Below are positions 5,868 to 51,337 of a stretch of 64,000 bases of DNA, piece by piece. The stretch comes from a virus. Position numbers and translations under genes: made by a program. Each line of letters begins with the position of its first letter. Within the stretch, counting starts at the first letter, position 1. The notes under the pieces are model-generated. The model made no database searches. It was not told where the DNA came from and saw only the letters and a list, made by a program, of their open reading frames with translations. The stretch lies in the IMG/VR virus record IMGVR_UViG_3300008451_000399, positions 22,412 through 86,411 of that record, one strand, 5' to 3'.

Positions 5868-7343
5868 ATGGCAATTTCAGACAGTGAATACATCTCTTGG
5901 CTTTCTTCTCCATCTGCTATCAGATGTATTCTTGTCGAAGCCAAATGTAATTCTGGCGGTACAGAGGTAACTCGTTATTTATCTAATCGAGGTTATGTAA
6001 CAAGTCCATCTTCAACTCCAGCTAACACTGAATACAAAGGTGTTATCAAAGCTGGAGTTAAGCTGACAGAAACCCTTTCTCTGGAATCTAACGCAACCCT
6101 TTCTTACGGGGATATTGAGCTAGATAATACATCAGGAGAATTAGATTCTTGGCTTGACGATGTGTGGGACAATAGAGATGTAGCTGTATTTTATGGAGAT
6201 GTGAAATGGGAACGAGCTGACTTCAGACTTGTATTTGACGGAGTGTTGTCAGGTGTTGGTAGCTCTTCACGTACATCCCTTAATCTAATGTTAAGAGACA
6301 ATTTACAGAAACTCAACACCCCTATTTCGGATGTAAAGCTTGGTGGAAGCTCTACTAACAAGGATAGACTTATTCCTATTACTATCGGGGAATGTCACAA
6401 TGTAAGTCCTTTGTTGACAGACGCTGTAAATCATGAGTATCAAGTACACACTGGAGCTATTGAGTCTATTATTGAAGTGAGGGATAACGGTGCTCCTATC
6501 ACAGTGACACCCCTCTTGTCAACAGGGAAATTTAGATTAACATCTTCCCCCGTTGGAACAATTACTTGCTCAATCCAAGGTGCAAAATCATCCACATACA
6601 GTAATCAAATTGTGGATGCTATTAAATTGTTAGTCAAGTCTTTTGGCACACCGGCAAACAGGTTGACAGATTCAGATTTAGATGGTACAAATCTTTCAAG
6701 CTTTGCTTCTTCAAATACAGCTCCAATAGGGTTTTATCAATCTGACAGGATTAACTTATTAGAAGCTATTCAACAATTAGCTGGAAGTGTTGGGGGACAG
6801 ATAACTACATCTAGGGCTGGATTATTGAAAATACTTCGTATTGATTTTCCTCCTTCTGGAACTCCTGTGCTTATTAATACGGATCACATTGTAGAGAAAT
6901 CATTCGGGGTAGACAGCAGACTCCCTATTCAATCTTCTGTTAAGATTGGTTATTGTAAAAACTATACAGTAGAAAACAATCTTCAAACCGTTATTCCAGA
7001 AGAGCATAAGAGTTTATATGAACAGGAATGGCTTACTATAACACAATCTGACAGTACAGTGGCTACTAAGTATAAACAAATAGCAGAGCCTGTGCAGAAA
7101 GACACTTTGTTATTAACTACAGCTACAGCAACAACAGAAGCAACAAGACGTTTGAATATTGTCAAGCAACAACGTACTGTATACAAGATGACTTGTTTTG
7201 CAAGTATGTTTAATTTAGAACTTGGTCAGGCTGTTACTTTGAAACACCCTCGTTTTGGACTCAGTTCTGGAGTATTAGGGGTTGTTGTAGGGCTAGAACC
7301 AGATTGGATAAATGCAAGAATAACAGTGAAAGTAATGGTGTAA
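5868..7343 (+). CDS. tail tip / baseplate hub protein
   Basis: Follows the tape measure gene; PITIGECHNVSP and C-terminal LELGQAVTLKHPRFGL resemble siphovirus hub proteins. Confidence 0.65.
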   Translation: MAISDSEYISWLSSPSAIRCILVEAKCNSGGTEVTRYLSNRGYVTSPSSTPANTEYKGVIKAGVKLTETLSLESNATLSYGDIELDNTSGELDSWLDDVWDNRDVAVFYGDVKWERADFRLVFDGVLSGVGSSSRTSLNLMLRDNLQKLNTPISDVKLGGSSTNKDRLIPITIGECHNVSPLLTDAVNHEYQVHTGAIESIIEVRDNGAPITVTPLLSTGKFRLTSSPVGTITCSIQGAKSSTYSNQIVDAIKLLVKSFGTPANRLTDSDLDGTNLSSFASSNTAPIGFYQSDRINLLEAIQQLAGSVGGQITTSRAGLLKILRIDFPPSGTPVLINTDHIVEKSFGVDSRLPIQSSVKIGYCKNYTVENNLQTVIPEEHKSLYEQEWLTITQSDSTVATKYKQIAEPVQKDTLLLTTATATTEATRRLNIVKQQRTVYKMTCFASMFNLELGQAVTLKHPRFGLSSGVLGVVVGLEPDWINARITVKVMV

Positions 7344-7344
7344 T

Positions 7345-8997
7345 ATGGCAACAGTTGTAAATACAAGAGATGTATTGTTATTAGCAGCTTCTCCGCGTTT
7401 GTTGTGGACTGGTGTTCGTGGAGTAAAGATAACAGCAGATTCTACTACATTTAAAGTGACAGCCGCTGGTTCACCTACGCCTTCTACAATTAACCTAACA
7501 AGTGCATTGAATGGTGTTTCAGGAACAGTGAATTGGACTGTCACATTTGGCACTGCAACATTGTCAAGTTCTACAGGAGCTACAACATCTCTTGTATATA
7601 GCAACATGACCACAAGTGTTGTTACTATCAAAGCAACTGTAACGGATGGTGGAGTTGCATACACAGACACTATTACTTTATCTAAAGTTGTTGATGGCGC
7701 AACAGGGGCTACAGGAGCCACAGGTTCAGCAGGTGCTGCAGGAGATCAAGGAGCAAGTTCTCGTATTGCTTACACTTTAATAGATGGAAATAGCTTAAAC
7801 TCGACACCGACAAGTGTTACAGTTTCTGGTGATTCTAAACCCTCTTCTGGAACTTGGGGAGAAACTAGATCATGGACTAATTCACCAAGTAGTCCCTCTG
7901 CAGGTCAAGCTGTTTTCCAATCTACAGGAACTTATAATCCTACTACGAATCAGACAGTTTGGGTGGTTCCTTACTTGAGCAATTTAAAAGTTGGGCAACT
8001 ATCAGCTATTACAGCAGACATTGGTACAATAACAGCAGGGAGTTTAACAGCTAATGTGACTATTGTTTCCAATGGGAATATTAAAGCAAGTGGACAGAAC
8101 TCTAACTTATCAAGTGTATGGGGAGATAACCCGAATACGAATAGTTATGGCGTAGCTGGAACTTGCAATACAACAGGAGGTACTGGAGTATTTGGTGTTG
8201 GGACAGCTCAAGGTGTCTATGGTTCTAGCCCATCAGGAAAGGCTATTTATGGGAATACCGACACAGGGTATGCTGTATATGGTATTTCAAGTAGTTCGTC
8301 TGGTGTAGGTGGATACTTCACCGCAGTAACAGGCTACGCTTTGCAAACAAGTGGTAAAAGCTTATTCCAAGAGTTTGATGCTATTACACTGACTTCAGAA
8401 TGCAGCTCATCTAGCTATTCATCAGGTGTATTTAGAAATACAAGTAGTGGTAAAGTTATTTCATTAGGTGGCGGTAGTTATGCTGCTTACAGTGGAAGTG
8501 GTGATGGCAAGATTTATGCTGTAGATGGTTTTACTCCTTTTACTGGAAGCCACAATGGGCTAATACTGAAACGACAGTTTCCAGAAGTAGGTGATATTGT
8601 ATGTGATGTTGCTACAATATTCAAGCATGATGTAAGCAATACATTAAGTGAAATTGCTTGTAGTTCTGTTGCTAATGATAAAAGAGTTATTGGAGTATTT
8701 GTATCAGAAGAACATGATAATCCTCTTGACATTCCTGATGAAGAATGGTATAATTACAAGGAAAAATATTCTTTAATTTCTTTCAATGCAGTTGGTGAAG
8801 GATGTATCAATGTATGTGGAGAGAATGGCAATATTGAAATAGGTGATTTAATTGTAACATCCTCTCAATCTGGAAAAGGTATGAAACAATCAGATGATAT
8901 TGTACGAAACATAACTGTAGCAAAATCCAGAGAAGATGTCAAGTTCGATTCACCTACGCAAATTAAACAAATAGCATGTATTTATATGTGCGGATAA
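7345..8997 (+). CDS. tail fibre/spike with C-terminal intramolecular-chaperone-like domain
   Basis: Collagen-like GAT triplets, GVYG-type beta-solenoid repeats, PFTGSH followed by GEGCINVCGENGNIEIGDLIVTSS (peptidase G2/IMC-like). Confidence 0.75.
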   Translation: MATVVNTRDVLLLAASPRLLWTGVRGVKITADSTTFKVTAAGSPTPSTINLTSALNGVSGTVNWTVTFGTATLSSSTGATTSLVYSNMTTSVVTIKATVTDGGVAYTDTITLSKVVDGATGATGATGSAGAAGDQGASSRIAYTLIDGNSLNSTPTSVTVSGDSKPSSGTWGETRSWTNSPSSPSAGQAVFQSTGTYNPTTNQTVWVVPYLSNLKVGQLSAITADIGTITAGSLTANVTIVSNGNIKASGQNSNLSSVWGDNPNTNSYGVAGTCNTTGGTGVFGVGTAQGVYGSSPSGKAIYGNTDTGYAVYGISSSSSGVGGYFTAVTGYALQTSGKSLFQEFDAITLTSECSSSSYSSGVFRNTSSGKVISLGGGSYAAYSGSGDGKIYAVDGFTPFTGSHNGLILKRQFPEVGDIVCDVATIFKHDVSNTLSEIACSSVANDKRVIGVFVSEEHDNPLDIPDEEWYNYKEKYSLISFNAVGEGCINVCGENGNIEIGDLIVTSSQSGKGMKQSDDIVRNITVAKSREDVKFDSPTQIKQIACIYMCG

Positions 8998-18631: not shown

Positions 18632-19600
18632 TTAATACTCCCATTCTCCAGTTAATGATTGTTTACTATAAGCTGTGATTGTACTTTCAAAGAAGTTACC
18701 AAACACGCCATCCCCTGTAATTTCTTCAATGAAAGGTAAAGGATTTTTCTCTACGTTAAATTGAGGTTTAAATCCCATCTGTTGCATCCGAATGTCACAA
18801 ACAAATCGAATGTAGTCTTTCAAATCTTTCTTTAACAACTTCTCATTATCCTCGATGTTGTAGCACAAGTCAATGAAATCATCTTCAAGTTTTACAACTG
18901 TTCGAGCTGTCTCGTAGATTGTTTTCTTGAATTCCTCATTTACAACAGAAGGGTTCTCAGCAACAAATATCTTGAACAACTCAGACAACCCTTGTACGTG
19001 AAGCTGCTCGTCAATAATCGACCATTGGTTAATACTTACAAGTCCTGACAACTGTCCTTGACGAGAGAAGTTTAAAAGCATTGCAAAGGACGCGAATAAC
19101 GAAACTCCTTCTAACAGAATCTGTTTAGCTAAATATTCAGCAATGCCTTTATTAGACCTCATGTTTGATTGCTCAATAAAGAATGTGTGCTTATCCGCCA
19201 TCTCTTTATATTGCAAGAACTCAGACATAAAAGCTTCTGTGTCATACCCAAGTGTGTCATTTAATCGTTTATACGCTTTAATGTGTGTCACTTCACGACT
19301 AGCAAATGACAACAACATCATACGAGCGTCTGCTTGCTTAAATACTGGTAACAGCTTCTCAACATAACCTGAGCATACATCCGTATCTGCTTGAGTGAAC
19401 AAACGTAGAATCATCTTAACAAACTCTTTACGTTGTGGGGCAATGCTTCCATCTTTCCACTGTGTAACATCTTGAGCCATGTCAGCTTCATCTTCAATCC
19501 AATGACTTCGCTCGTGCTTTCCTAACAGCTCTTGCAGTACGTGGTACTTTGGTACAAAAATCTCTGTGGCTTCTGTAATCTTACTCATATTATCCTTCAC
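18632..19600 (-). CDS. nrdB: ribonucleotide reductase class I beta subunit
   Basis: FTQAD, E.THIKAY (radical Tyr), EGVSLF and DEQLH di-iron ligands; NFFE tail. Confidence 0.95.
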   Translation of the reverse strand: MKDNMSKITEATEIFVPKYHVLQELLGKHERSHWIEDEADMAQDVTQWKDGSIAPQRKEFVKMILRLFTQADTDVCSGYVEKLLPVFKQADARMMLLSFASREVTHIKAYKRLNDTLGYDTEAFMSEFLQYKEMADKHTFFIEQSNMRSNKGIAEYLAKQILLEGVSLFASFAMLLNFSRQGQLSGLVSINQWSIIDEQLHVQGLSELFKIFVAENPSVVNEEFKKTIYETARTVVKLEDDFIDLCYNIEDNEKLLKKDLKDYIRFVCDIRMQQMGFKPQFNVEKNPLPFIEEITGDGVFGNFFESTITAYSKQSLTGEWEY

Positions 19601-21422
19601 AACTTAAACATGTTGACTTTGTAGGGTCTTGCCAATCGACAAGAGCTTTACGTTCAATTTTCTGTGCAATGTCGATATTACCCTCTCGTTCTGTTCGGAA
19701 GTAGTACAGGGTGAGCACATTAGGACTATGCAAGAACTTACGATGCACAGAATTAACATACTTACGACTACTACCAAATGGGAAGAACAAGTTCAAGCTA
19801 CTTGCTTGACATACACTCTTACCTCGTGCTTCCGCAATTTCAATCAACCAATGTTGGTCAATCTCCATAGCCGTAGCATACACTTTCTTCTCGTGATCTG
19901 TCAAGAACTCTAAGTGACTTACCCGACCTTCATTATCTTGAATACTCTTCCACACTTCATCTGTATCCATATCATGTTTCTTCAACACATTTACAAGATT
20001 GCCATTCTTCACTGTAAATGTACCAGCACGAGAGCTTTGTAAGAATACATTACGGAAGTATGGTTCAATACTCGGACTTGTATTTAAGATAGAAGCACTG
20101 TTAGAGTTTGGTGCAACTGCCATTAATCGACTGTTACGCAATCCAGTTCCAACCATATCATCAGGTTCACCTCGCTCTTTAGCAAGACGTTTACTTTCTT
20201 CCACAGCACGTTTCTTAATCAATCCAAACAATCGTTCTGTCATTGTTACAGCATTGTTTAAGCTGTCAGCTCCCTCTAAAGGAATTCCTTTGTTTTGCAA
20301 ATAACTATGAAACCCCAAAGTACCTAACCCTAAACCACGTTCAGATTTAGCAGAGAATCGGGCTTTAGACAATGTAGCAGGAGCGTTATCAATAAAACTC
20401 TGCAATACATTGTCTAAGAATCGAATCAAATCTTCTACAATCTTTGTATCTTTCCATTCATCAAACTTCTCCAAATTCAAGCTAGATAGACAGCAAACAA
20501 ATGTGCGATTCTCGTCTGTTGGCATGAGGATTTCTGAACATAAGTTGCTACCGCGAATCTTCAACCCTTTTGCTTTCTGTGTCTCTGGAAGCTTACGATT
20601 AGCTTCATCAATCTTCAATAAATATGGCTCACCTGTCAATGCACGATTCTCTAAGATTGTTTCCCACACTTCACGAGCACGTAGTTCTTCATATACACGA
20701 CCACTGTGAGGGCATACTAACGGGTATGTGCTGTCAGATTCTACTGCTGCAATAAACTCATCTGTAAGATTCACAGCAGAATGGTATTGTTGTCGGTTAT
20801 CACTACGTCTTTTTGCGTCTCCTCCAGCTTTACGGAAGTTGATGTGTTCTATAATGTCAGGATGATCTACATTGCAATAAGCTGCAATTGCACCACGTCT
20901 ATTTTGTTGTCGGAAATAACCAATTGCAGAATCCATTACTTTCTGGTAAGGAATATTGCCAACAGCCTTACCGCCTACTCCACGAATACTCAAATGAGCA
21001 CCTGTACCCCCACCACTCATAGACAACGTTGCAAGCTCTTGAATTGCCTCAACTTGACCTTGTGCTGTATCAGGTACATCAAATGCAAAACAACTAATAG
21101 GTAGTCCACGGGCTTTTTCTTCTGCAATAAATGTGCTTGTGTACCAATAATGTTTACCTTGTTTCTCAGGGTCTTCTACCCACTTACCTTTTGCTGCATT
21201 ACTCAATACAGGACTTGCATACATAAACCAACCATTGTACACATATTCATAAATTCTTTGTGCCAATTCATAATCACCATAACAATACGCTGCTGCAGGT
21301 CTTGCTAAAGCCATTGGGATAGTTTCATCATCTCGTTTATAAAAACCATCTAATAATGTTTTTGAGAACTCTGTAATGTATGAAGGGTCTTTCTCGTGAA
21401 TCTTAATTCCCAAATATTCCAT
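19590..21422 (-). CDS. nrdA: ribonucleotide reductase class I alpha subunit without ATP cone (start MEYLG)
   Basis: ASPVLSN, PISCF, SNLCSEI, CCLSSLNL, APNSNS, TLYYFR, C-terminal CLSCEG; RBS supports 21422 rather than 21476. Confidence 0.95.
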   Translation of the reverse strand: MEYLGIKIHEKDPSYITEFSKTLLDGFYKRDDETIPMALARPAAAYCYGDYELAQRIYEYVYNGWFMYASPVLSNAAKGKWVEDPEKQGKHYWYTSTFIAEEKARGLPISCFAFDVPDTAQGQVEAIQELATLSMSGGGTGAHLSIRGVGGKAVGNIPYQKVMDSAIGYFRQQNRRGAIAAYCNVDHPDIIEHINFRKAGGDAKRRSDNRQQYHSAVNLTDEFIAAVESDSTYPLVCPHSGRVYEELRAREVWETILENRALTGEPYLLKIDEANRKLPETQKAKGLKIRGSNLCSEILMPTDENRTFVCCLSSLNLEKFDEWKDTKIVEDLIRFLDNVLQSFIDNAPATLSKARFSAKSERGLGLGTLGFHSYLQNKGIPLEGADSLNNAVTMTERLFGLIKKRAVEESKRLAKERGEPDDMVGTGLRNSRLMAVAPNSNSASILNTSPSIEPYFRNVFLQSSRAGTFTVKNGNLVNVLKKHDMDTDEVWKSIQDNEGRVSHLEFLTDHEKKVYATAMEIDQHWLIEIAEARGKSVCQASSLNLFFPFGSSRKYVNSVHRKFLHSPNVLTLYYFRTEREGNIDIAQKIERKALVDWQDPTKSTCLSCEG

Positions 21423-21462
21423 AACTTCCTTTCTATTTATATATTCTGAAGAACGAAACAAT

Positions 21463-21491
21463 AGTATATCATCCATCCTTCAGAATTGCAA
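21463..21491 (-). promoter_or_regulatory. sigma70-like promoter for nrdAB
   Basis: TTGCAA-17nt-TATACT. Confidence 0.7.
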
Positions 21492-22570: not shown

Positions 22571-23470
22571 CTATTTCTCCTTAAACATATAACTAAAAGC
22601 AGCTTTAGTTTTTATTTCATTAATCTTGCGTTTATCTTCATCTTCCATTGAGTTCCAGACATCAGGTGAGATGTAGGCTTCTTGGATAGAAACTTTCAAT
22701 CCTTTTCGTTTCATCTCACAAGGACAATAAGTGTCTGTACCAGATGCTCCCATACATGCACATAAGTTCATCACACTTCATCCTCACAAATCACTCTACC
22801 CTCTGGGTACATTTTAGCATTGATTGCTTCCCAAGCATCTAATTCTGTTTTAAAACGTCTACGGTCTTGATACCAAATATCTTCCCATACCAGCAAAGCT
22901 TTGTATTGAGCTTTGAACATTCCATAGTTTGCAATAATTCTTACTTTCATAACACCTCCTAAAAATTAAAATGAAACCCTTTCATTTGCTCCCTCATTTG
23001 TTTCTCTACAGCAAACTGATTATGAATTACACTGATGTCCAAGTCAAGTGATTTCAAGTAACTTAATAAATCTGGTTCTTGCTTATAGTCAATCATTATA
23101 CCATAGAAGTATTGCTTCACACCTACTGAGAAACCTTTGTCATCATACATTGCAATACCGTCTACAAGAGTTCCAAAGTTTCCTTGTGGTGATAGTGCAA
23201 TCATACCATTCTCAAGGAATGTAATGTTAAGCGGTAGTGTTCCTAAGGGAGTTGTTATTTGTTGCATATAACCTCATCGAATAAAACTGTATTAAACCCT
23301 TTAGAATAACCTACTAAATACACTTCTGAATGCCAACTCCATACGTCAATGAAATTTACTTCGTATGTTTCTCCTACAGTTAAATACTCGTTAGCTCTGT
23401 CTTTGCAAGCTTGTAAGCCTTCTTTTGCAGTGTACACTACTTTAGTTCCTTTGGGTGAGTAGATGTTCAT
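22571..23470 (-). other. small hypothetical ORFs (22571-22774, 22959-23267, 23255-23470)
   Basis: Tightly packed ORFs. Confidence 0.55.
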
Positions 23471-24042
23471 TTATTTTCCTTCCCATGACGGTCTGTGTAT
23501 CCTGCACCCTGAGAGTTTAATTCTTCAATCATCTTCTGACGATGGATTACTGCATCTCTGAATGCAACCATGATTCCTAGTTTCTTTACTGAAAATGATT
23601 TTGTCACTTTAGCTCCGTTTGTGAGATTACACCAAGAGGCTCTGACATATAACTCTTTTATCCAATTTTCTTGAAAAGTTACTCCAGTAACACCAGAACT
23701 GTTTCTACTATTCATCTTACAGTTTCTAGCATTCTTAATTAACTCTATCACCCTCAAATTGGTTATAAAATTATTCAGAGAATTTCCGTCTCTATGATCT
23801 ACGAGAAAACCCTCTGGAACTTTTCCTTTGAACATTTCCCAAACAATAATGTGAGCAGGACGTTTAATTCTTTTAACACAATTATACCAATACCCATCTG
23901 TACCGATACTACCAGCAGCATCTCCAGATATAGCTATAAAGTTATTGTGATGTTTTGTATTAGTCCTACTGACTTTCCATCTTAAACAACTAGGAGAAGT
24001 CTCATCATAATAGAACCAATCATTCCAATTAATCTTTTCCAT
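23467..24042 (-). CDS. HNH homing endonuclease
   Basis: YDETSPSCLRWK; AHIIVWEM...VDHRDGNSLNNFITNLR; NSSGVTGV; C-terminal DNA-binding domain. Confidence 0.9.
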   Translation of the reverse strand: MEKINWNDWFYYDETSPSCLRWKVSRTNTKHHNNFIAISGDAAGSIGTDGYWYNCVKRIKRPAHIIVWEMFKGKVPEGFLVDHRDGNSLNNFITNLRVIELIKNARNCKMNSRNSSGVTGVTFQENWIKELYVRASWCNLTNGAKVTKSFSVKKLGIMVAFRDAVIHRQKMIEELNSQGAGYTDRHGKENK

Positions 24043-25259: not shown

Positions 25260-25847
25260 TCATACACTTACTCCTTTCAAAATAGCCCTAACAGCTTCCT
25301 TGCGATTTGGGGCATTGTTTGTATTGTACTCGTTATGCCAATTATAGTCAAGTATGAACTGAACAATATCTTCTTTCTTTTCGTTCTTAAAAATAGCTAT
25401 TAGCTCTTTCTCCAGTCTAGCATCTTCAAAAGTAATTCCATGACCTTGCGCATAAGTTATAATCCCGTGGCACTCTTTACAGGCAATACGTAACCAAGAG
25501 TCATCTACATAGTACAAGTGCTTGGCATAAGCTTCAATGTCCTCTATAGACCGTAGAGAACCTTCATCTCCAATATGATCTACTTCAACAGACTTATCAA
25601 ATGGAAACTGCTTCCCACAAATCTCACAGTCGATCTTGTTAATCTCTGGGAACCTTTTCATTGATTTAGGGTTAGTGTTCTTAACTTTATACTTCTTAGA
25701 GTTCTTGTAATTGGTCTTAATAGCATAGTTACTCCAACCTTTTCTCAAAACTCCACGAAGCCAGTTAAGCCACTTACCTTCAGTCTTCCAAGGATTACCT
25801 TCTACTTCCCAAGGGAGGATTTCAGGACGCTTCATAGTTCCAACCAC
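25260..25847 (-). CDS. HNH-type endonuclease with Cys ligands
   Basis: CEIC...VEVDH...LRIACKECH. Confidence 0.75.
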   Translation of the reverse strand: MVGTMKRPEILPWEVEGNPWKTEGKWLNWLRGVLRKGWSNYAIKTNYKNSKKYKVKNTNPKSMKRFPEINKIDCEICGKQFPFDKSVEVDHIGDEGSLRSIEDIEAYAKHLYYVDDSWLRIACKECHGIITYAQGHGITFEDARLEKELIAIFKNEKKEDIVQFILDYNWHNEYNTNNAPNRKEAVRAILKGVSV

Positions 25848-29273: not shown

Positions 29274-29542
29274 GGCTTCTCCTTCGTAATAAACCTACTA
29301 TGAATCCACATACCCAACATTGCCCCAAGCCCACTTCCAGTGCCTATCCAAAACACTAACCAACCCCATCCATGCTTGCTAATTACTGTAATAGTCCAAA
29401 CTTCAAGTGCTCCCATCATTAGAGATACTGGAAGGATTAGCATGTAGTGTTTACCAGCGACTGATAATTGTTGAAATGCTTTGAGTGCAACGAAGCAGAA
29501 GCTTGCAAAGAATGCTAGGAAGTACATTGCAGGTGGATTCAT
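29270..29542 (-). CDS. small three-TM membrane protein
   Basis: Three hydrophobic helices; AFQQLSV and GTGSGLGAMLG. Confidence 0.7.
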   Translation of the reverse strand: MNPPAMYFLAFFASFCFVALKAFQQLSVAGKHYMLILPVSLMMGALEVWTITVISKHGWGWLVFWIGTGSGLGAMLGMWIHSRFITKEKP

Positions 29543-30261
29543 TTAAAATCCTTAGCATAATAATGTCTAGGGTTCTTCTCCTTGTGCAACTCCTTCAACT
29601 GCTTCACCATTGGAGTAAGAGCCTTGTAAGCCTCTAATTGCCCTGTACACAGTGGTCGATCATCAATCAATGTACCTGCTGCTTGTGCTGATAAAATGAT
29701 GTCACAATTAGCTCCAATCGCGCCAAAGTGATTTACACCATCGACTTCATCCACCACTTCACCCATCTTAATCTTATCAAGGTGACGTTGAATAGCATCT
29801 AAGTAGATTGACATAACAACTTCTGTTCCAATGTAGTTTGCCAAACCGTACTTCTCAGCTCCGTTCAATTTTCCAAGGGCTACATGAGCTGAAAACAAAG
29901 GACTAATCATTCCCATTGGGAGTGCATGTGAGCCTATTTGTGCTTTGGGATTCACTGCGTTAGAGTTTACTTCCACTTGCTCAGGTGTTCCTGTTCCAAA
30001 ATTCTTTAATAACACAAATCCTTGACTTTCCAAGTATTTCTCATAAGTAATTACCTTTGAGTCATATTCTCGCACATAGAATCTCTTAGGTGAATATTCT
30101 GGATGATCTCCACCAATAGATATACAACACTCGTCTGTGTAAGGTAGTGATTCAAACTTATTTTTAATACCACATTCAAGAAACCACACTTGATTAGCTT
30201 CTTCTACTGTATCTACTCGTACTACTGTGTCGTAATTCATAATTCCTCCTATTAATTCCAA
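29539..30261 (-). CDS. dATP/dGTP diphosphohydrolase-domain protein (DUF5664-like)
   Basis: NPK..IG, GAEKYG..NY, YLDAIQRHL, GE..D...G.NH and LIDDRP motifs in the C-terminal half. Confidence 0.75.
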   Translation of the reverse strand: MELIGGIMNYDTVVRVDTVEEANQVWFLECGIKNKFESLPYTDECCISIGGDHPEYSPKRFYVREYDSKVITYEKYLESQGFVLLKNFGTGTPEQVEVNSNAVNPKAQIGSHALPMGMISPLFSAHVALGKLNGAEKYGLANYIGTEVVMSIYLDAIQRHLDKIKMGEVVDEVDGVNHFGAIGANCDIILSAQAAGTLIDDRPLCTGQLEAYKALTPMVKQLKELHKEKNPRHYYAKDFK

Positions 30262-36808: not shown

Positions 36809-37705
36809 TTATTTATTAAACTCAGGGAATATTGTAGCGAAATATTCTTTGATTGTCAAATTATTTTGTCCATAATAAACAGTATCACCACTCCTACTGC
36901 TTGGTGCAAAGTATCTCTGAACAGCATTAATATAAAAACTGTATTCATGTTGATATGTGGTATCCCAATCCTTTACGAATCGCTTCACATTTAATTGTTC
37001 TAGAGCAAGGTTATCGAATGAGACAATATCAAAAATCTTAAACAACTCGTGTATTTGTCTGTACCATTTACGATGCGAAGCAGAAACAATTTTGACTTTA
37101 CCTAAATTGAACCCAAAATCTTTCTCTCCTAATACAAGAATCTTCTTAACTCCATTGTCACGTAATTTCTTAACATCTTCGATGTCATCAATACCAGCAA
37201 TTACGTGCACAACCATGTTAGAGTATTGCGTCAAAGCTACTGGAATATCTCTCATACCTTTACGATAACTGATACCTAAGCCTTTTACAGCTTTACTGAG
37301 AATTGCCAAGTGAATGTTGATAATATCTCTGTGTACCAACCCTTGATTAACTGTCAGATTCACAACAAAGCCCTTATCTCGACATTTATACAAAAACTTA
37401 AGTAATTCATCTGTAACTTCGTTAGCTCCAATAGCAAGCTCTATGCCAGATGGAAGGTTTTTAAGAACTTCAAACAACTCTGTAAGATTAGCATCACTAC
37501 CATCTGTTGTTGCAGATTCATGACAGAATCCACAAATAGCTTTTCCTGTAGATTTGTTCAAACCAAATGCGCATTTCTCTGACACTCGTATATCAATGTT
37601 TAAAGGATATGTAAGTTTAATATCTCCCTCACACTCAATAACACGAGTACCATCATTGTACAATTTAATATCTGCGTTTCCATTTTGGTAGTGATGTAAC
37701 AACAT
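36809..37705 (-). CDS. radical SAM-like protein with CX12CX2C motif
   Basis: IDIRVSEKC-AFGLNKSTGKAI-CGFCHES, ELAIG, NLTVNQ, GLGIS, SFDNLALEQL. Confidence 0.8.
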   Translation of the reverse strand: MLLHHYQNGNADIKLYNDGTRVIECEGDIKLTYPLNIDIRVSEKCAFGLNKSTGKAICGFCHESATTDGSDANLTELFEVLKNLPSGIELAIGANEVTDELLKFLYKCRDKGFVVNLTVNQGLVHRDIINIHLAILSKAVKGLGISYRKGMRDIPVALTQYSNMVVHVIAGIDDIEDVKKLRDNGVKKILVLGEKDFGFNLGKVKIVSASHRKWYRQIHELFKIFDIVSFDNLALEQLNVKRFVKDWDTTYQHEYSFYINAVQRYFAPSSRSGDTVYYGQNNLTIKEYFATIFPEFNK

Positions 37706-37722
37706 TATTTCTCCTCTCTCTA

Positions 37723-38172
37723 TTAATGGTTGTCGTTGTCAGTTTCAATCCAAGAACTACTATCAAAGATAAATGACTTCAATAATGATTTATCTTCAAA
37801 AATGTAGTGCAAGTCAGCACTTTCTACAGATTGGTGGTCAATATACCCGTAGCCATCGTTCCATTTCTTCCCAAATACTTCATGCGTTACAGCACCAGCT
37901 CCTGTGTGCTCACATACAACCTCTTGCAAAGTTTTTATAAACTCATCCCTCTTGTCTCCACTCCAATCCATCGCATAAATGTAAGCGTATGCTAAACGAG
38001 CTTCGGGATATGAATATGTTTCTTGACTCCAACCAAACTCATGAGAATCGTCTACAATAATTAGATTATCCTCATTTGGTGTGATTCCATCGTAAGTTCC
38101 ACTTGCACCAATTGACAGACTGTGGCATGAGCTACTGTTTGTTTCAAATACTCCGTGACGTACTAATTTCAT
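37723..38172 (-). CDS. conserved phage protein with N-terminal FETNSSSxHS motif
   Basis: VRHGVFETNSSSCHS, FGW, YIDHQS and terminal DNDN. Confidence 0.8.
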   Translation of the reverse strand: MKLVRHGVFETNSSSCHSLSIGASGTYDGITPNEDNLIIVDDSHEFGWSQETYSYPEARLAYAYIYAMDWSGDKRDEFIKTLQEVVCEHTGAGAVTHEVFGKKWNDGYGYIDHQSVESADLHYIFEDKSLLKSFIFDSSSWIETDNDNH

Positions 38173-38732: not shown

Positions 38733-39143
38733 TTATTCCGCTAATAAATTCATCTGCTTAGAATACTTCAAAACACGCTTCATGTCAAGTCGTTTCAAGC
38801 TTTCATTTAAATTGCATTGTGTGTCATGCATCTTGACAATCTTGGCAAGAGCATTCCCTTTCACCTTAGCAATGTAGTCTTCGTAGCTTTCGTCAGCTAC
38901 TTTTGTAATAGCTCGCACAGCATTAACAACATTATCTTCAAACAATCCGTACAATACATCTAAGCTACAATTCGTATCTTCAAGAATATCATGGAGAATA
39001 GCAATAATTGGGAGTCTGTCGTCAACGTGACAGCTCACACTATCTGCTACAGCTAGTAGATGCACAGTATAAGGCTCATTGCCATACTTTTGTCCAGAGT
39101 GAAATTTTGTTGCGATTGTTAGGGCTAGTTCGTAGTCTGTCAT
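38733..39143 (-). CDS. stand-alone HD hydrolase (RelA/SpoT-HD, Mesh1-like)
   Basis: H.GQ.Y...PY..H, AILHDILEDT, VK..D...N; AGGAG RBS supports start at 39143. Confidence 0.88.
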   Translation of the reverse strand: MTDYELALTIATKFHSGQKYGNEPYTVHLLAVADSVSCHVDDRLPIIAILHDILEDTNCSLDVLYGLFEDNVVNAVRAITKVADESYEDYIAKVKGNALAKIVKMHDTQCNLNESLKRLDMKRVLKYSKQMNLLAE

Positions 39144-39171
39144 GATGTCTCCTGTAAATTGAACAGACTCT

Positions 39172-39200
39172 ACTTTATAGGAGTTGGTAGAATCTGTCAA
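39172..39200 (-). promoter_or_regulatory. sigma70-like promoter
   Basis: TTGACA-17nt-TAAAGT. Confidence 0.6.
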
Positions 39201-39209
39201 GAGGTTTGT

Positions 39210-40982
39210 TTAGAATGTTGCAGGGTTGGCTTCCAAATAATCATCCAAGTCCCATAACTTATGCTTCTCATTCTCATAGTAATACTTACCAACAATTCCA
39301 GTATCTCCGACACCACGTGCCTTAGATAACTTCATTAATGTTGTATTCTTATCTAAATCAGAATCTGCTTCTTTATCTCGCATAATAATAATGTTGATGC
39401 CACCAGATTTGAAAATAGTAGAGCTTCCCATAATATCTTCCTCTGATAAGTCTGCACCTTTAGAATTAGCCTTCTGTCCTTGTCCATTCTTGCGAACGTG
39501 ATTTACATTGACAAACATTACTCCTGTCTTCATCCAACCTTTCATCCAACCCATGAACTTCGCTTGTTCATCCTCTCCAAGCATATCAAACACATCTTGC
39601 AGTGGGTCAATGATAATTATCTTACAACCTAGACTAACAATCAAATACTCGATACGATCTTTCATTGTTTCAGCTTCAGCATCAAGAATGTAGAAACGAG
39701 GGTTCCCATCACTGTCATAAAACAACTCATCTTGTAATTGAACAATATCTTCTGAGTCAATGAAGTTAAGACGGTCTTCTACTGTCTCAAATAAATTCAT
39801 TTTGACTTCGGCGTAGGATGACAGAAGATTTACTCCATACTCACCATCTCCCGTTTCCATTGGGACAATTCCAACCTTACTATTTTCATTCATAATCCAA
39901 TGCAAGATCATTGCATCTACATAAGTCGATTTTCCAGTACCTGAGGCAGAAATTAGGTTTAGGATACAAGATGCTGGAATTCCTCCTCGTAGCTTCTTCT
40001 GTAACTTGTGCATAAAAGGTGGAAGCGTAATACGAGGCATACTCAGAAACTCTCGCATTTTATCTTTGATGTCCGTACTAGCTGTTACACCTGAAGGTAC
40101 ATACTTCTTAGCTTTCAAGAAGTCTTGGATAAACTCTTGTTGCTTGCCAGCTTTAACATAATCATCAGCATCCTTGTAACGCATACGCATCACCCAAGCC
40201 TTACCTTTAGGTAAAACTTTAATGATTTGTTCTGTAGCTTTCTGTCCAGCTTCATCTTCATCCATACACACAATAATCTTCTTGAATTGATTAAAGAATT
40301 CATACTGAGCTTGCACTTGCTTGTGTGCTCCGCTTTCTCCTAGTGTAGAACATACAACTGCAGTTGTTTCATACTGCAAAGCATTACGTTGTGTCTGATT
40401 GTCCAAAAGCATTTGATATGTGCTCAAAGCCTTCGTTTCACCTCCTGTAATGATACAAGTGTTTGTGTGTGTCTTGAAACGGAATTGAAACACCATATCG
40501 CATTCCTTCCCAACCTGTCCTACAGGATGTGAGAAATCTTTGGGGAATGTGCGAGTGCGATAACCTGATAATTCCCCGCCAATTGTTGTTGGAACATATT
40601 GCTTAACAGGCTCACCTGTCTCTTCATCATACGAATAACGCACTCCGAAGAAATTGTTTGTGGCTGTCTTAATACCTCTGTACCCTTTACCATCTGTGCC
40701 AGTGTATCCCTTAATACGTTCATTCTCTTCTGGTGTAATTTTCTCTCTTGTACTCACTTCACTCTCCTCATAATAATCCTCTTCCTCATCCCATCCCATA
40801 GCGTCACGATGCTCTTGACTAGCAATAGTCCAGCCACAACTCCAACAGTGGGCAGACTCTGTACTGGCATAGACATGTAAATTGTTTCTGGAATTATCTC
40901 TGCCTTCTCGTATACAACGAGGACAACCTGTTTTGTGCTCTCGTGTTAAATCAATTCCATACTTCTCTGCTATTGCTGACAT
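39210..40982 (-). CDS. primase-helicase (T7 gp4-like)
   Basis: CPRC/CWSC zinc finger, TOPRIM MDEDEAG, Walker A SGTGKST, IIIDP, NHVRK, GSS, KAR. Confidence 0.93.
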   Translation of the reverse strand: MSAIAEKYGIDLTREHKTGCPRCIREGRDNSRNNLHVYASTESAHCWSCGWTIASQEHRDAMGWDEEEDYYEESEVSTREKITPEENERIKGYTGTDGKGYRGIKTATNNFFGVRYSYDEETGEPVKQYVPTTIGGELSGYRTRTFPKDFSHPVGQVGKECDMVFQFRFKTHTNTCIITGGETKALSTYQMLLDNQTQRNALQYETTAVVCSTLGESGAHKQVQAQYEFFNQFKKIIVCMDEDEAGQKATEQIIKVLPKGKAWVMRMRYKDADDYVKAGKQQEFIQDFLKAKKYVPSGVTASTDIKDKMREFLSMPRITLPPFMHKLQKKLRGGIPASCILNLISASGTGKSTYVDAMILHWIMNENSKVGIVPMETGDGEYGVNLLSSYAEVKMNLFETVEDRLNFIDSEDIVQLQDELFYDSDGNPRFYILDAEAETMKDRIEYLIVSLGCKIIIIDPLQDVFDMLGEDEQAKFMGWMKGWMKTGVMFVNVNHVRKNGQGQKANSKGADLSEEDIMGSSTIFKSGGINIIIMRDKEADSDLDKNTTLMKLSKARGVGDTGIVGKYYYENEKHKLWDLDDYLEANPATF

Positions 40983-50074: not shown

Positions 50075-51337
50075 TTAGTAATCAGTAATTGAATAATACT
50101 CTTCATCAGTAACCTTGTCAAGTCTTTGTTCAACAAAATCTAAAAGTAAATCTCTGTCATTTGAAGACACAGCTTCTTTAATAAATCCTGCAACACCCTG
50201 ATCTATTATCTCAAAAGTCCTCTTTATCTCAGATTCTATAGCAAGAACCTGTCTACCTCTTCCTGTAAAAAGATGAGAGTAGTTAATTGTTTTACCATGT
50301 TTTTGCAGATTGTTTCTATGAGTTTTCAACCTCTCAGTTGGACTATTAGTTATTCCAAAACCTACAAAATCTTCCTTCTCTTCTTTATAAATATCTAAAA
50401 TATAGAGATACCCATCTTTACTTGATTTATACCCTCCCATTGATGAACAAGAAGGACAAGTACAAAGCTTATTATCGAAGTTTATACTAGAATAGCTCTT
50501 GACATAATATCCATGAATATCACAGCTAAATATTATTCTGCGGATATTCTTGTGTTTCGTTACTTGGCTGACAATTCCCTCGAACTTACAATGAGTTATT
50601 CCTTTTTCACTGAAAATCTCCTCAATTTTGAATTTAATTTGCGCATCAGTATATTTAAATTTATCAGAACACCTACATGGTTTATTTGCAGATTTAGTTA
50701 AGGTTGTTTTAAATACTCCATCACATAACCCTGCTTGAACAAATTTATCATAACTACAAATTCCACAATTTAAAAACATCACCTTACCTGATCTGTGACC
50801 CTCTTTACTCAGAGGTCTATTGATCTCTGACCTTAGAATAAACGTACCATCTGGAAACTCTTTTAGAACTCCGCTATAGTCTTCTAAATTTTTTGTTTTT
50901 CTACTAGAGATAAACTCCTTTTCACAATCAATGCACATTCCTTTGTGTCTCTCAGATAGAAACGTGTGGATACTTACTGATTCTGTATACGTTCCGTGTG
51001 TGCTGCATCTAGTAGTCAGTTTAGAATCAATTCCGACACTATTATAATCGAAATCCACTAATTCTAAATGTGGAAACTCTTTTAGTTTTCGTCTAACTCT
51101 TATCTCGTATTGCTTAGGAGAGTAGTTAGCAGATTTAGAGCACCCACATGGCAATATTCCTCTTGTAAAATTACTGTAGAAAATTTCAAACTCACCATTT
51201 CCAAACATTTCAGGGTCATTTTGGCATATTTTGCAGGTAACAATAACATGCCTTTCTCGATCTGATAGTCTCAAAATCTCTAAGTTTCCTTTTATCTCGC
51301 CAACCCTATCTACTAATTTCACTCGCTTACTCTTCAT
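50075..51337 (-). CDS. putative homing endonuclease: Cys/His zinc repeats plus C-terminal GIY-YIG-like domain
   Basis: Repeated C..C, C..HG and PC.CS units; GYLYI...FGITN...RL..H...IE. Confidence 0.75.
   Translation of the reverse strand: MKSKRVKLVDRVGEIKGNLEILRLSDRERHVIVTCKICQNDPEMFGNGEFEIFYSNFTRGILPCGCSKSANYSPKQYEIRVRRKLKEFPHLELVDFDYNSVGIDSKLTTRCSTHGTYTESVSIHTFLSERHKGMCIDCEKEFISSRKTKNLEDYSGVLKEFPDGTFILRSEINRPLSKEGHRSGKVMFLNCGICSYDKFVQAGLCDGVFKTTLTKSANKPCRCSDKFKYTDAQIKFKIEEIFSEKGITHCKFEGIVSQVTKHKNIRRIIFSCDIHGYYVKSYSSINFDNKLCTCPSCSSMGGYKSSKDGYLYILDIYKEEKEDFVGFGITNSPTERLKTHRNNLQKHGKTINYSHLFTGRGRQVLAIESEIKRTFEIIDQGVAGFIKEAVSSNDRDLLLDFVEQRLDKVTDEEYYSITDY
50093..50121 (-). promoter_or_regulatory. 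sigma70-like promoter for the recombinase, inside the upstream gene's 3' end
   Basis: TTGACA-17nt-TATTAT. Confidence 0.7.

Follow-up and report, generated by a model that had tools for sequence, protein, structure and literature searches.

Why would a phage carry a radical S-adenosylmethionine (SAM) enzyme right next to a small acidic protein, and what could the two do together? The question is raised by a pair of genes in a 64,000-nucleotide stretch of a virus genome (positions 22,412 to 86,411 of IMG/VR record IMGVR_UViG_3300008451_000399). We call this whole stretch the window and count positions from its first letter; the record that contains it is 86,411 bp long, with a CheckV completeness estimate of 100%. 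Both genes lie on the minus strand. The first open reading frame (ORF; 37723..38172) encodes a protein of 149 residues with an isoelectric point (pI) of 4.6, which we call the client. The second (36809..37705) encodes a compact radical SAM enzyme of 298 residues, composed of a barrel and, at the N terminus, a beta-sheet (residues 2-25). The client gene precedes the enzyme gene, and its TAA stop (37723-37725) is separated from the ATG of the enzyme (37703-37705) by a spacer of 17 nt (37706..37722) in which an AGGAG ribosome-binding site can be read. When we read the sequence again, the two minus-strand ORFs, their coordinates, the 17-nt gap and the sequence motifs were all as the first-pass annotation of this DNA had given them. 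The client opens with an N-terminal tag (residues 1-18, MKLVRHGVFETNSSSCHS; 38119..38172, minus strand), and the core of this tag, R-x3-F-E-T-N-S-S-S-x-H, is invariant across our alignments. Here, we propose that the recurrent pairing of such an enzyme with tagged proteins probably marks an undescribed protein-modification system.

Enzyme and tag are encoded together

How general is the pairing? We fetched contigs around enzyme seeds or tag seeds (loci numbered with an L, e.g., L097). All 50 viral loci seeded with the enzyme, as well as the Microcystis phage Ma-LMM01 and the window, carry one to three tagged genes on the same strand and within about 4 kb of the enzyme gene, and the 101 partner hits in the enzyme-seeded loci bear the tag without exception. 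When the tag was the seed, 77 of 80 viral loci proved to have the enzyme within 8 kb; since some contigs occur in both sets, these are not independent. One of the three exceptions has its enzyme elsewhere in a 98%-complete genome of 212 kb, about 18 kb beyond the fetched stretch, and the two others are fragments with an estimated completeness of 38% and 11%. The pairing of enzyme and tag is near-obligate, far beyond what would be expected by chance. The earlier remark that it recurs in phages with no assigned function is thus borne out by the gene neighborhoods. Clustering of the neighbors in 52 loci revealed no third gene family common to them: the runner-up is present in 22 of the 52, all from one phage group.

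The arrangement of the module varies between genomes. The number of tagged ORFs per locus ranges from one to nine, and one enzyme appears, from gene content, to serve many clients. The enzyme and tagged genes of Lak megaphages are about 1.6 kb apart. Two loci, L097 and L098, carry a natural fusion of enzyme and client in a single protein of 453 residues (6109-7470 in both), with the tag placed right after the C terminus of the enzyme. The enzyme part of these fusions has the canonical CX3CX2C cluster motif, and a separate tagged gene is found downstream (7995-8555).

The tag pattern is also present in assemblies assigned to bacteria and archaea. A survey of prokaryotes, with one genome for each of 185,579 species, returned 157 stretches with the tag pattern, mostly on contigs of metagenome-assembled genomes (MAGs). 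The enzyme lies within 8 kb of the tag in 56 of the 77 loci that were fetched, and arrays include up to nine tagged ORFs. The arrays of nine occupy 3390-12738 of L143 and 2356-11713 of L150, contigs binned as Fibrobacter and Prevotella MAGs; the bodies of their tagged proteins are mostly unrelated, and each array has one enzyme gene 1-2 kb upstream of the first tagged ORF.

A tag shared by otherwise dissimilar proteins

What do the partners of the enzyme have in common? We collected every tag-bearing ORF in the fetched loci, which gave 359 distinct proteins. The counts at the positions of the tag are R 356, F 359, E 358, T 358, N 358, S 359, S 358, S 354, H 356 and, for the final S, 273. This logo is partly circular, since selection required a match at 7 of 10 pattern positions. 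Yet R5, which lies outside the pattern used to select an alignment of 45 representatives, is invariant in that alignment. Position 16 of the tag is occupied by T, C, A, S, V or M. In partner hits from loci seeded with the enzyme, about 9 residues separate the initiator methionine from the start of the tag.

The rest of these proteins is far more diverse. Beyond the tag, at least 29 groups can be told apart, with no BLAST similarity between them. An alignment of 45 representatives of the 28 non-main groups has only the residues R, F, E, T, N, S, S, S and H in common, with a mean column identity of 13%. The partner had first been read as a single family defined by three motifs. These motifs are indeed present in the window client (R5 and FETNSSSCHS at 9-18, YIDHQS at 110-115 and a C-terminal DNDNH), but the tag alone is universal, and YIDHQS and DNDNH are features of one among at least 29 bodies. 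Within the narrower set of 38 homologs of the window client, the invariant positions are R5, FETNSSS, H17-S18, GW, Y62, YIDH-S and D147.

The tagged proteins are folded proteins of 90-330 residues and strongly acidic: their median pI is 4.6, 96% are below 5.5 and the window client is at 4.59. The family of the window client is very large, and no curated family includes it. At E<=1e-3, a profile built from the 38 homologs matched 5652 clusters (50% identity), 3249 of them at E<=1e-10. The client matched nothing in Pfam (the Tad2-like PF11195 included), NCBIfam or PADLOC, and a word search retrieved 202 homologs, none with a Pfam domain. Its AlphaFold2 model has a predicted local distance difference test (pLDDT) score of 87 and is confident except for residues 1-11 (pLDDT <50). 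No solved fold in the PDB matched this model at E<=1e-3 with Foldseek, and the best match in a wide VIA search had a Z score of 2.7. In BFVD, the model retrieved uncharacterized family members and a 461-residue protein named Radical_SAM-containing (E 0.098), which we tentatively take to be a fusion.

Known domains fused to the tag could hint at what the bodies do. We searched three sets: 32 long viral clients, 46 long representatives and 45 representatives of the other post-tag families. The Tad2-like domain was found in 5 of the 32 long viral clients (see below). No other domain was found in the three sets, except for two matches, to tRNA_int_endo (5e-4) and YtxC (2e-3), which we discounted as isolated and weak. 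A word search for longer relatives gave eight proteins, none with a Pfam domain, and a search of the Atlas with a C-terminal extension gave nothing.

A compact radical SAM enzyme

The 298-residue protein belongs to the radical SAM superfamily. Its cluster motif, C45-x12-C58-x2-C61, is followed by the pair H62-E63 (37523..37573, minus strand, read codon by codon). Alignments of 27 and 46 members show invariant or nearly invariant cysteines at C45, C58 and C61 alone, and the two other cysteines of the window enzyme, C24 and C108, are not conserved. No auxiliary-cluster (SPASM/twitch) cysteines are conserved in either alignment, and we place the enzyme outside the SPASM/twitch group because these are missing. 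Both the expanded CX12CX2C loop and the lack of a SPASM domain had been noticed in the initial reading, and both stand after checking the codons and finding only three conserved cysteines.

Curated resources have little to say about the enzyme. It matched nothing in Pfam at E<=1, and NCBIfam and PADLOC contained no match for either enzyme or client, including any of the curated NCBIfam radical SAM maturase systems. PHROGs is the only family library with matches for the pair (phrog_16999 and phrog_28997); phrog_16999, annotated as "Fe-S oxidoreductase," matches the enzyme with E 2e-28. A word search gave 1189 homologs, and none of the 120 listed has a Pfam domain. The product of gp128 of Ma-LMM01 is 34.5% identical to the enzyme (E 7e-41), and a gap of 9 residues in the alignment turns the motif into the canonical CX3CX2C. 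This protein matches PF04055 above the cutoff. All of 10 canonical-motif homologs match PF04055 at E<=0.1, 6 of them above the gathering cutoff of 29.5 bits. Since homologs with the canonical loop match this profile, we attribute the failure of the window enzyme to do so to its 9-residue insertion.

The spacing between the first and second cysteines was compared in 110 distinct family members from the fetched loci. CX3 (53 members) and CX12 (43) dominate, followed by CX11 and CX5 (2 each), CX14, CX8 and CX4 (1 each) and 5 members with an unresolved spacing; 2 more CX5 members were scored as 15 by the script owing to an upstream cysteine. The expanded loop is thus a clade trait on a canonical background, and the copy in the window, with its one client, is a typical representative of the CX12 clade. 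Expansion of this loop has precedent: the cluster motif of QueE from Burkholderia multivorans is CX14CX2C. That enzyme (PDB 4NJG) likewise accommodates many extra residues between its first and second cluster cysteines, but it is a distant fold match (Z 8.5) and acts on a small molecule, and the insertion of the phage family is clade-specific, the other half of the family being canonical.

Some homologs have unusual gene structures. In L123 (5700-8017) and L128 (5652-8017), the enzyme is split, and the break lies right in front of the third cluster cysteine. The N-terminal half ends in C-x3-C-x2 and continues with an intein-like start (C-F-P-A-G), the second ORF opens with a 37-residue intein-C-like segment ending in V-S-N followed by C-H-E, and an 81-residue HNH-like ORF lies between the two halves. 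This looks like a split intein, or like an intein disrupted by an endonuclease, and its placement would imply that the third cluster cysteine is essential. Two other homologs are unusually long: L138 3629-5704 (about 691 residues) and L125 11612-13153 (about 513 residues, with an N-terminal extension of 216). They may contain inteins or extra domains.

For the enzyme as for the client, sequence and profile searches of PDB chains gave nothing meaningful. The AlphaFold2 model of the enzyme has a pLDDT of 90. Foldseek matched it to SkfB, CteB, SuiB and EpeE, each with a probability of 1.0. In VIA, the best matches were SkfB (Z 18.1 over 255 residues, spanning 2-293 of the model) and SuiB (Z 16.1, 267 residues), and further rows included PqqE, viperin, BlsE (15.1), EpeE (14.7), ChlB (13.8), CteB (13.0) and the anaerobic sulfatase-maturating enzyme (anSME; 12.8). 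The 15 best rows (Z 18.1-11.5) are radical SAM enzymes without exception; the pyruvate formate-lyase (PFL) activase comes lower, with Z 11.0 and 185 aligned residues. The alignment with SkfB takes in the N-terminal domain, and the nearest solved folds are peptide-modifying maturases.

Predicted complex of enzyme and client

Does the enzyme bind its client? We co-folded the two proteins with our own alignments, a 4Fe-4S cluster and SAM as inputs. The median ipSAE was 0.85, against 0.30 for the best of three controls; the calibration, only rough given these inputs, had 58 of 80 solved complexes and 2 of 110 mismatched pairs reaching that mark. Contacts agreed between runs at 96% or more, and the pLDDT of the partner was at least 71. 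The predicted interface comprises client residues 1-23, 25-32, 36, 88-91 and 137 and, on the enzyme, strand 18-29 with the conserved barrel-lining residues H62-E63, 89-94, N116-T118, 141-144, 163-167, 188-195 and S269-R271. The surest predicted contacts join client residues 2-7 to enzyme residues 18-24, a strand of the N-terminal sheet. The model supports binding, with the tag of the client predicted to thread into the barrel of the enzyme.

This arrangement recalls the maturases of RiPPs (peptides made by the ribosome and modified post-translationally). SkfB (PDB 6EFN) and SuiB (5V1Q/5V1T) match the model best in structure, along nearly its entire length, they too have an N-terminal domain ahead of the barrel, and the predicted docking of the client, by strand addition and then insertion into the barrel, is like theirs. 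The differences are as marked. The phage enzyme lacks the SPASM/twitch cysteines and has no sequence similarity to these proteins, and the module is carried by phages. The pairing of client residues 2-7 with enzyme residues 18-24 is leader-like in the prediction, but the clients are folded proteins with a universal N-terminal tag rather than short leader-core peptides. Finally, a thioether is impossible in the tag, because the tag has no conserved cysteine.

Proposed mechanism and alternatives

We consider it rather likely that the radical SAM enzyme is a maturase that modifies the tag of its clients. Residues 2-7 or so of the client, with the invariant R5, would dock as an added beta-strand on the N-terminal sheet of the enzyme, in the manner of leader peptides at SkfB- or SuiB-type maturases. 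The FETNSSSxH segment would then enter the barrel above the [4Fe-4S]/SAM site, where the 5'-deoxyadenosyl radical would take a hydrogen from a residue of the tag, with the three serines, T11 and N12 as the likeliest sites. The product would be a covalent change on the tag. Our first preference is an intra-tag cross-link involving F9 or H17: a carbon-carbon or ether bond is plausible since these invariant residues flank T, N and S. Our second preference is the conversion of a serine into an aldehyde, as in sulfatase maturation, and the third is an epimerization. Once modified, the tag could arm or stabilize the client's acidic body, whose action would probably come early in infection and may be directed against host defense. 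The superfamily and fold of the enzyme, the conserved and modular tag and the near-obligate linkage of the genes are results of this analysis, and the steps of binding and chemistry are predictions.

A system of this kind would have a parallel in sulfatase maturation. anSME is a SPASM enzyme with two auxiliary clusters, and its sulfatase clients carry the motif (C/S)xPxR. Like the phage enzyme in our proposal, anSME (PDB 4K36; Z 12.8) is a radical SAM enzyme that modifies a serine or cysteine in a short conserved motif of folded clients, with several clients per enzyme. It differs in that the phage tag is FETNSSSxH, the phage clients are small and acidic, and the phage enzyme lacks the auxiliary-cluster cysteines.

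Several points weigh against the maturase proposal. The enzyme is missing within 8 kb in 21 of the 77 tag loci from bacterial or archaeal assemblies, many of which are contigs of 2-8 kb. The co-fold may echo remembered RiPP complexes such as SuiB-SuiA and hence reflect likeness rather than binding. In the model of the client alone, tag residues 15-20 form a strand of its own sheet, so that the tag could insert fully into the barrel only if free prior to folding. The chemistry is also constrained: characterized serine oxidases (anSME) and epimerases (EpeE) use an auxiliary cluster or an extra cysteine that the enzyme family lacks, and an anSME-type aldehyde or an EpeE-type epimerization would thus need some variation on their mechanisms. 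The invariant string E/T/N/S/S/S/H could equally be a catalytic or metal-binding loop. Finally, fusions of an enzyme to its substrate are unusual, and the one in L097 and L098 fits an obligate subunit at least as well.

These last points lead to the alternative that survives best, although we regard it as unlikely. The tagged protein could be an obligate subunit, whose tag completes the active site or binds a second metal or a small molecule; the heterodimer would act on a third substrate (a nucleotide, a nucleic acid or a host molecule), and the acidic body would give the specificity. Besides the natural fusion, this would account for a near-invariant tag rich in residue types typical of ligands and catalysis (E, N, S and H) and for a predicted interface that takes in the body at residues 88-91 and 137. 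It would also suit the position of the module among replication and nucleotide-metabolism genes, both in the window and in Ma-LMM01. However, up to nine tagged genes with unrelated bodies accompany a single enzyme gene, which fits clients better than stoichiometric subunits. The closest fold matches, moreover, are to peptide maturases, whose mode of substrate binding is the one predicted here, and neither a third conserved gene nor a gene of a small-molecule pathway accompanies the pair.

It is also conceivable, but improbable in our view, that the tag either processes itself, with pyruvoyl or N-terminal nucleophile (Ntn) type cleavage at N|S or S|S, or signals targeting (e.g., to the capsid) or cleavage, and that the enzyme is linked to it for some other reason. 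Ser-Ser and Asn-Ser junctions are classical self-cleavage sites, and the tag has both. It always starts about 9 residues from the initiator methionine, and in the fusion a cleavage at the tag, following the enzyme, would free a protein starting with serine. Yet this leaves the near-obligate linkage to the enzyme and the predicted threading into its barrel unexplained. The fold searches with the client returned no pyruvoyl or Ntn enzyme (the best VIA match being the one with Z 2.7), an absence that is weak evidence, and the module lies in the replication block rather than in the structural block. The first-pass annotation had left it open whether the serine-rich motif is a substrate or an autoprocessing site: the co-fold makes it a likely contact, and substrate, of the enzyme, and autoprocessing found no support in a client model that matches no solved fold.

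PMC11528403 demonstrates that partner activases can generate stable radicals at the alpha carbon of Ser, Thr and Ala, and it describes glycyl-radical and aminoacyl-radical enzymes (GREs and AAREs), the clients of such activases, as having an RVxG[FWY]-type fingerprint and a catalytic cysteine. Like the PFL activase (PFL-AE; PDB 3C8F) and the AARE activases, the phage enzyme is small and SPASM-free and would act on a loop of an adjacently encoded partner. It is nonetheless very improbable that the tag carries a stable backbone radical on a serine or threonine and that the client is a miniature aminoacyl-radical enzyme: the radical precedent, the lack of auxiliary clusters and the presence of the PFL activase among the fold matches would agree with this, but that match is weaker than those to the maturases, neither the fingerprint nor the catalytic cysteine occurs in 38 aligned clients, no cysteine is conserved in the tag or elsewhere in the client to form a thiyl radical, the client has no ten-stranded barrel, and the oxygen-dependent class I ribonucleotide reductase of the window, together with a relative that infects the oxygenic Microcystis, suggests oxic hosts in which such radicals would be destroyed.

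Genomic setting

The pair is located in the early/replication block of the window, in a run of minus-strand genes. On the client side, this run includes a primase-helicase (39210-40982), an HD-domain protein (HD_4; 38733-39200) and, between the latter and the client gene, an ORF of 107 residues. Beyond the enzyme, it continues with a family A DNA polymerase, a dGTP_diPhyd_N protein, the class I ribonucleotide reductase, ThyX and a ligase. A megablast search of the region against phage records gave no match.

The enzyme system had initially been proposed to serve nucleotide or DNA modification. Apart from its position in the replication block, nothing ties its product to such modification. A link to thymidine hypermodification (cf. 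PMC8989533) was considered and set aside, since the pair is not accompanied by a hydroxymethylase, kinase or transferase. We also considered a 2-aminoadenine (Z-genome) phage. The dATP/dGTP diphosphohydrolase N-terminal domain protein (29539-30261) and the HD_4 protein are reminiscent of the MazZ/DatZ pair of such phages. This idea was dropped since no PurZ-like protein was found among the 20 neighboring ORFs scanned, and it would in any case leave the module unexplained, because relatives of the module occur in unrelated phages.

Other genes of the window may interest readers for other reasons. Two HNH endonuclease genes (23467-24042 and 25260-25847), which probably encode homing endonucleases, are intermingled with a metallophosphoesterase gene close to the genes for the class I ribonucleotide reductase (18632-21476); one of the two includes an AP2 domain. 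Further away, a 420-residue protein (50075-51337) has a CapR homology domain (PF21817, E 1.9e-19).

Possible function and significance

If the enzyme is a maturase, what are its clients for? Counter-defense, one of the roles suggested for the pair at the outset, is a lead. The module lies in the early/replication block, and its clients are small, acidic, diverse and multiplied, as is typical of phage counter-defense proteins. Moreover, the Tad2-like domain (PF11195) that we found in 5 of the 32 long relatives is C-terminal, with a best E of 5.8e-8 (33.6 bits against a cutoff of 25), and an Atlas cluster of 261-residue Tad2-like proteins resembles the model of the client (template modeling score 0.64). 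Tad2 is described as a sponge for Thoeris signals. These acidic clients and this domain are what the suggestion has in its favor, and it stands as a lead and no further.

The Tad2-like tagged proteins, of about 262 residues, are those of L021, L026, L027 (11699-12487), L034 and L036. In these phages of about 68 kb, the Tad2-like gene stands in tandem with one or two tagged paralogs, downstream of the enzyme.

The module would thus consist of a radical SAM maturase and the tagged proteins on which it acts. We found no description of the enzyme-client pair in the literature searched, a scope that leaves aside subscription journals and supplements, and a full-text search for the string "ETNSSS" gave no paper. 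As a tentative generalization, it is possible that, in phages of many lineages, one compact radical SAM enzyme free of auxiliary clusters installs a new protein-derived group (which could be a cross-link, an aldehyde or a radical) on a portable 17-residue tag, arming a large and rapidly diversifying set of small acidic counter-defense effectors. This would be a general, virus-specific system to tag and arm proteins.

The module ranges over phages from cyanobacterial blooms to gut megaphages. If our proposal is true, it would be a large, unannotated radical SAM system acting on whole proteins instead of peptides, and it would do so without the auxiliary clusters thought to be necessary for most such chemistry. 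The reaction itself would then be new to radical SAM enzymology, and the portable 17-residue tag could serve for site-specific protein modification. For the phages, the acidic client families would be good candidates for new anti-defense proteins.

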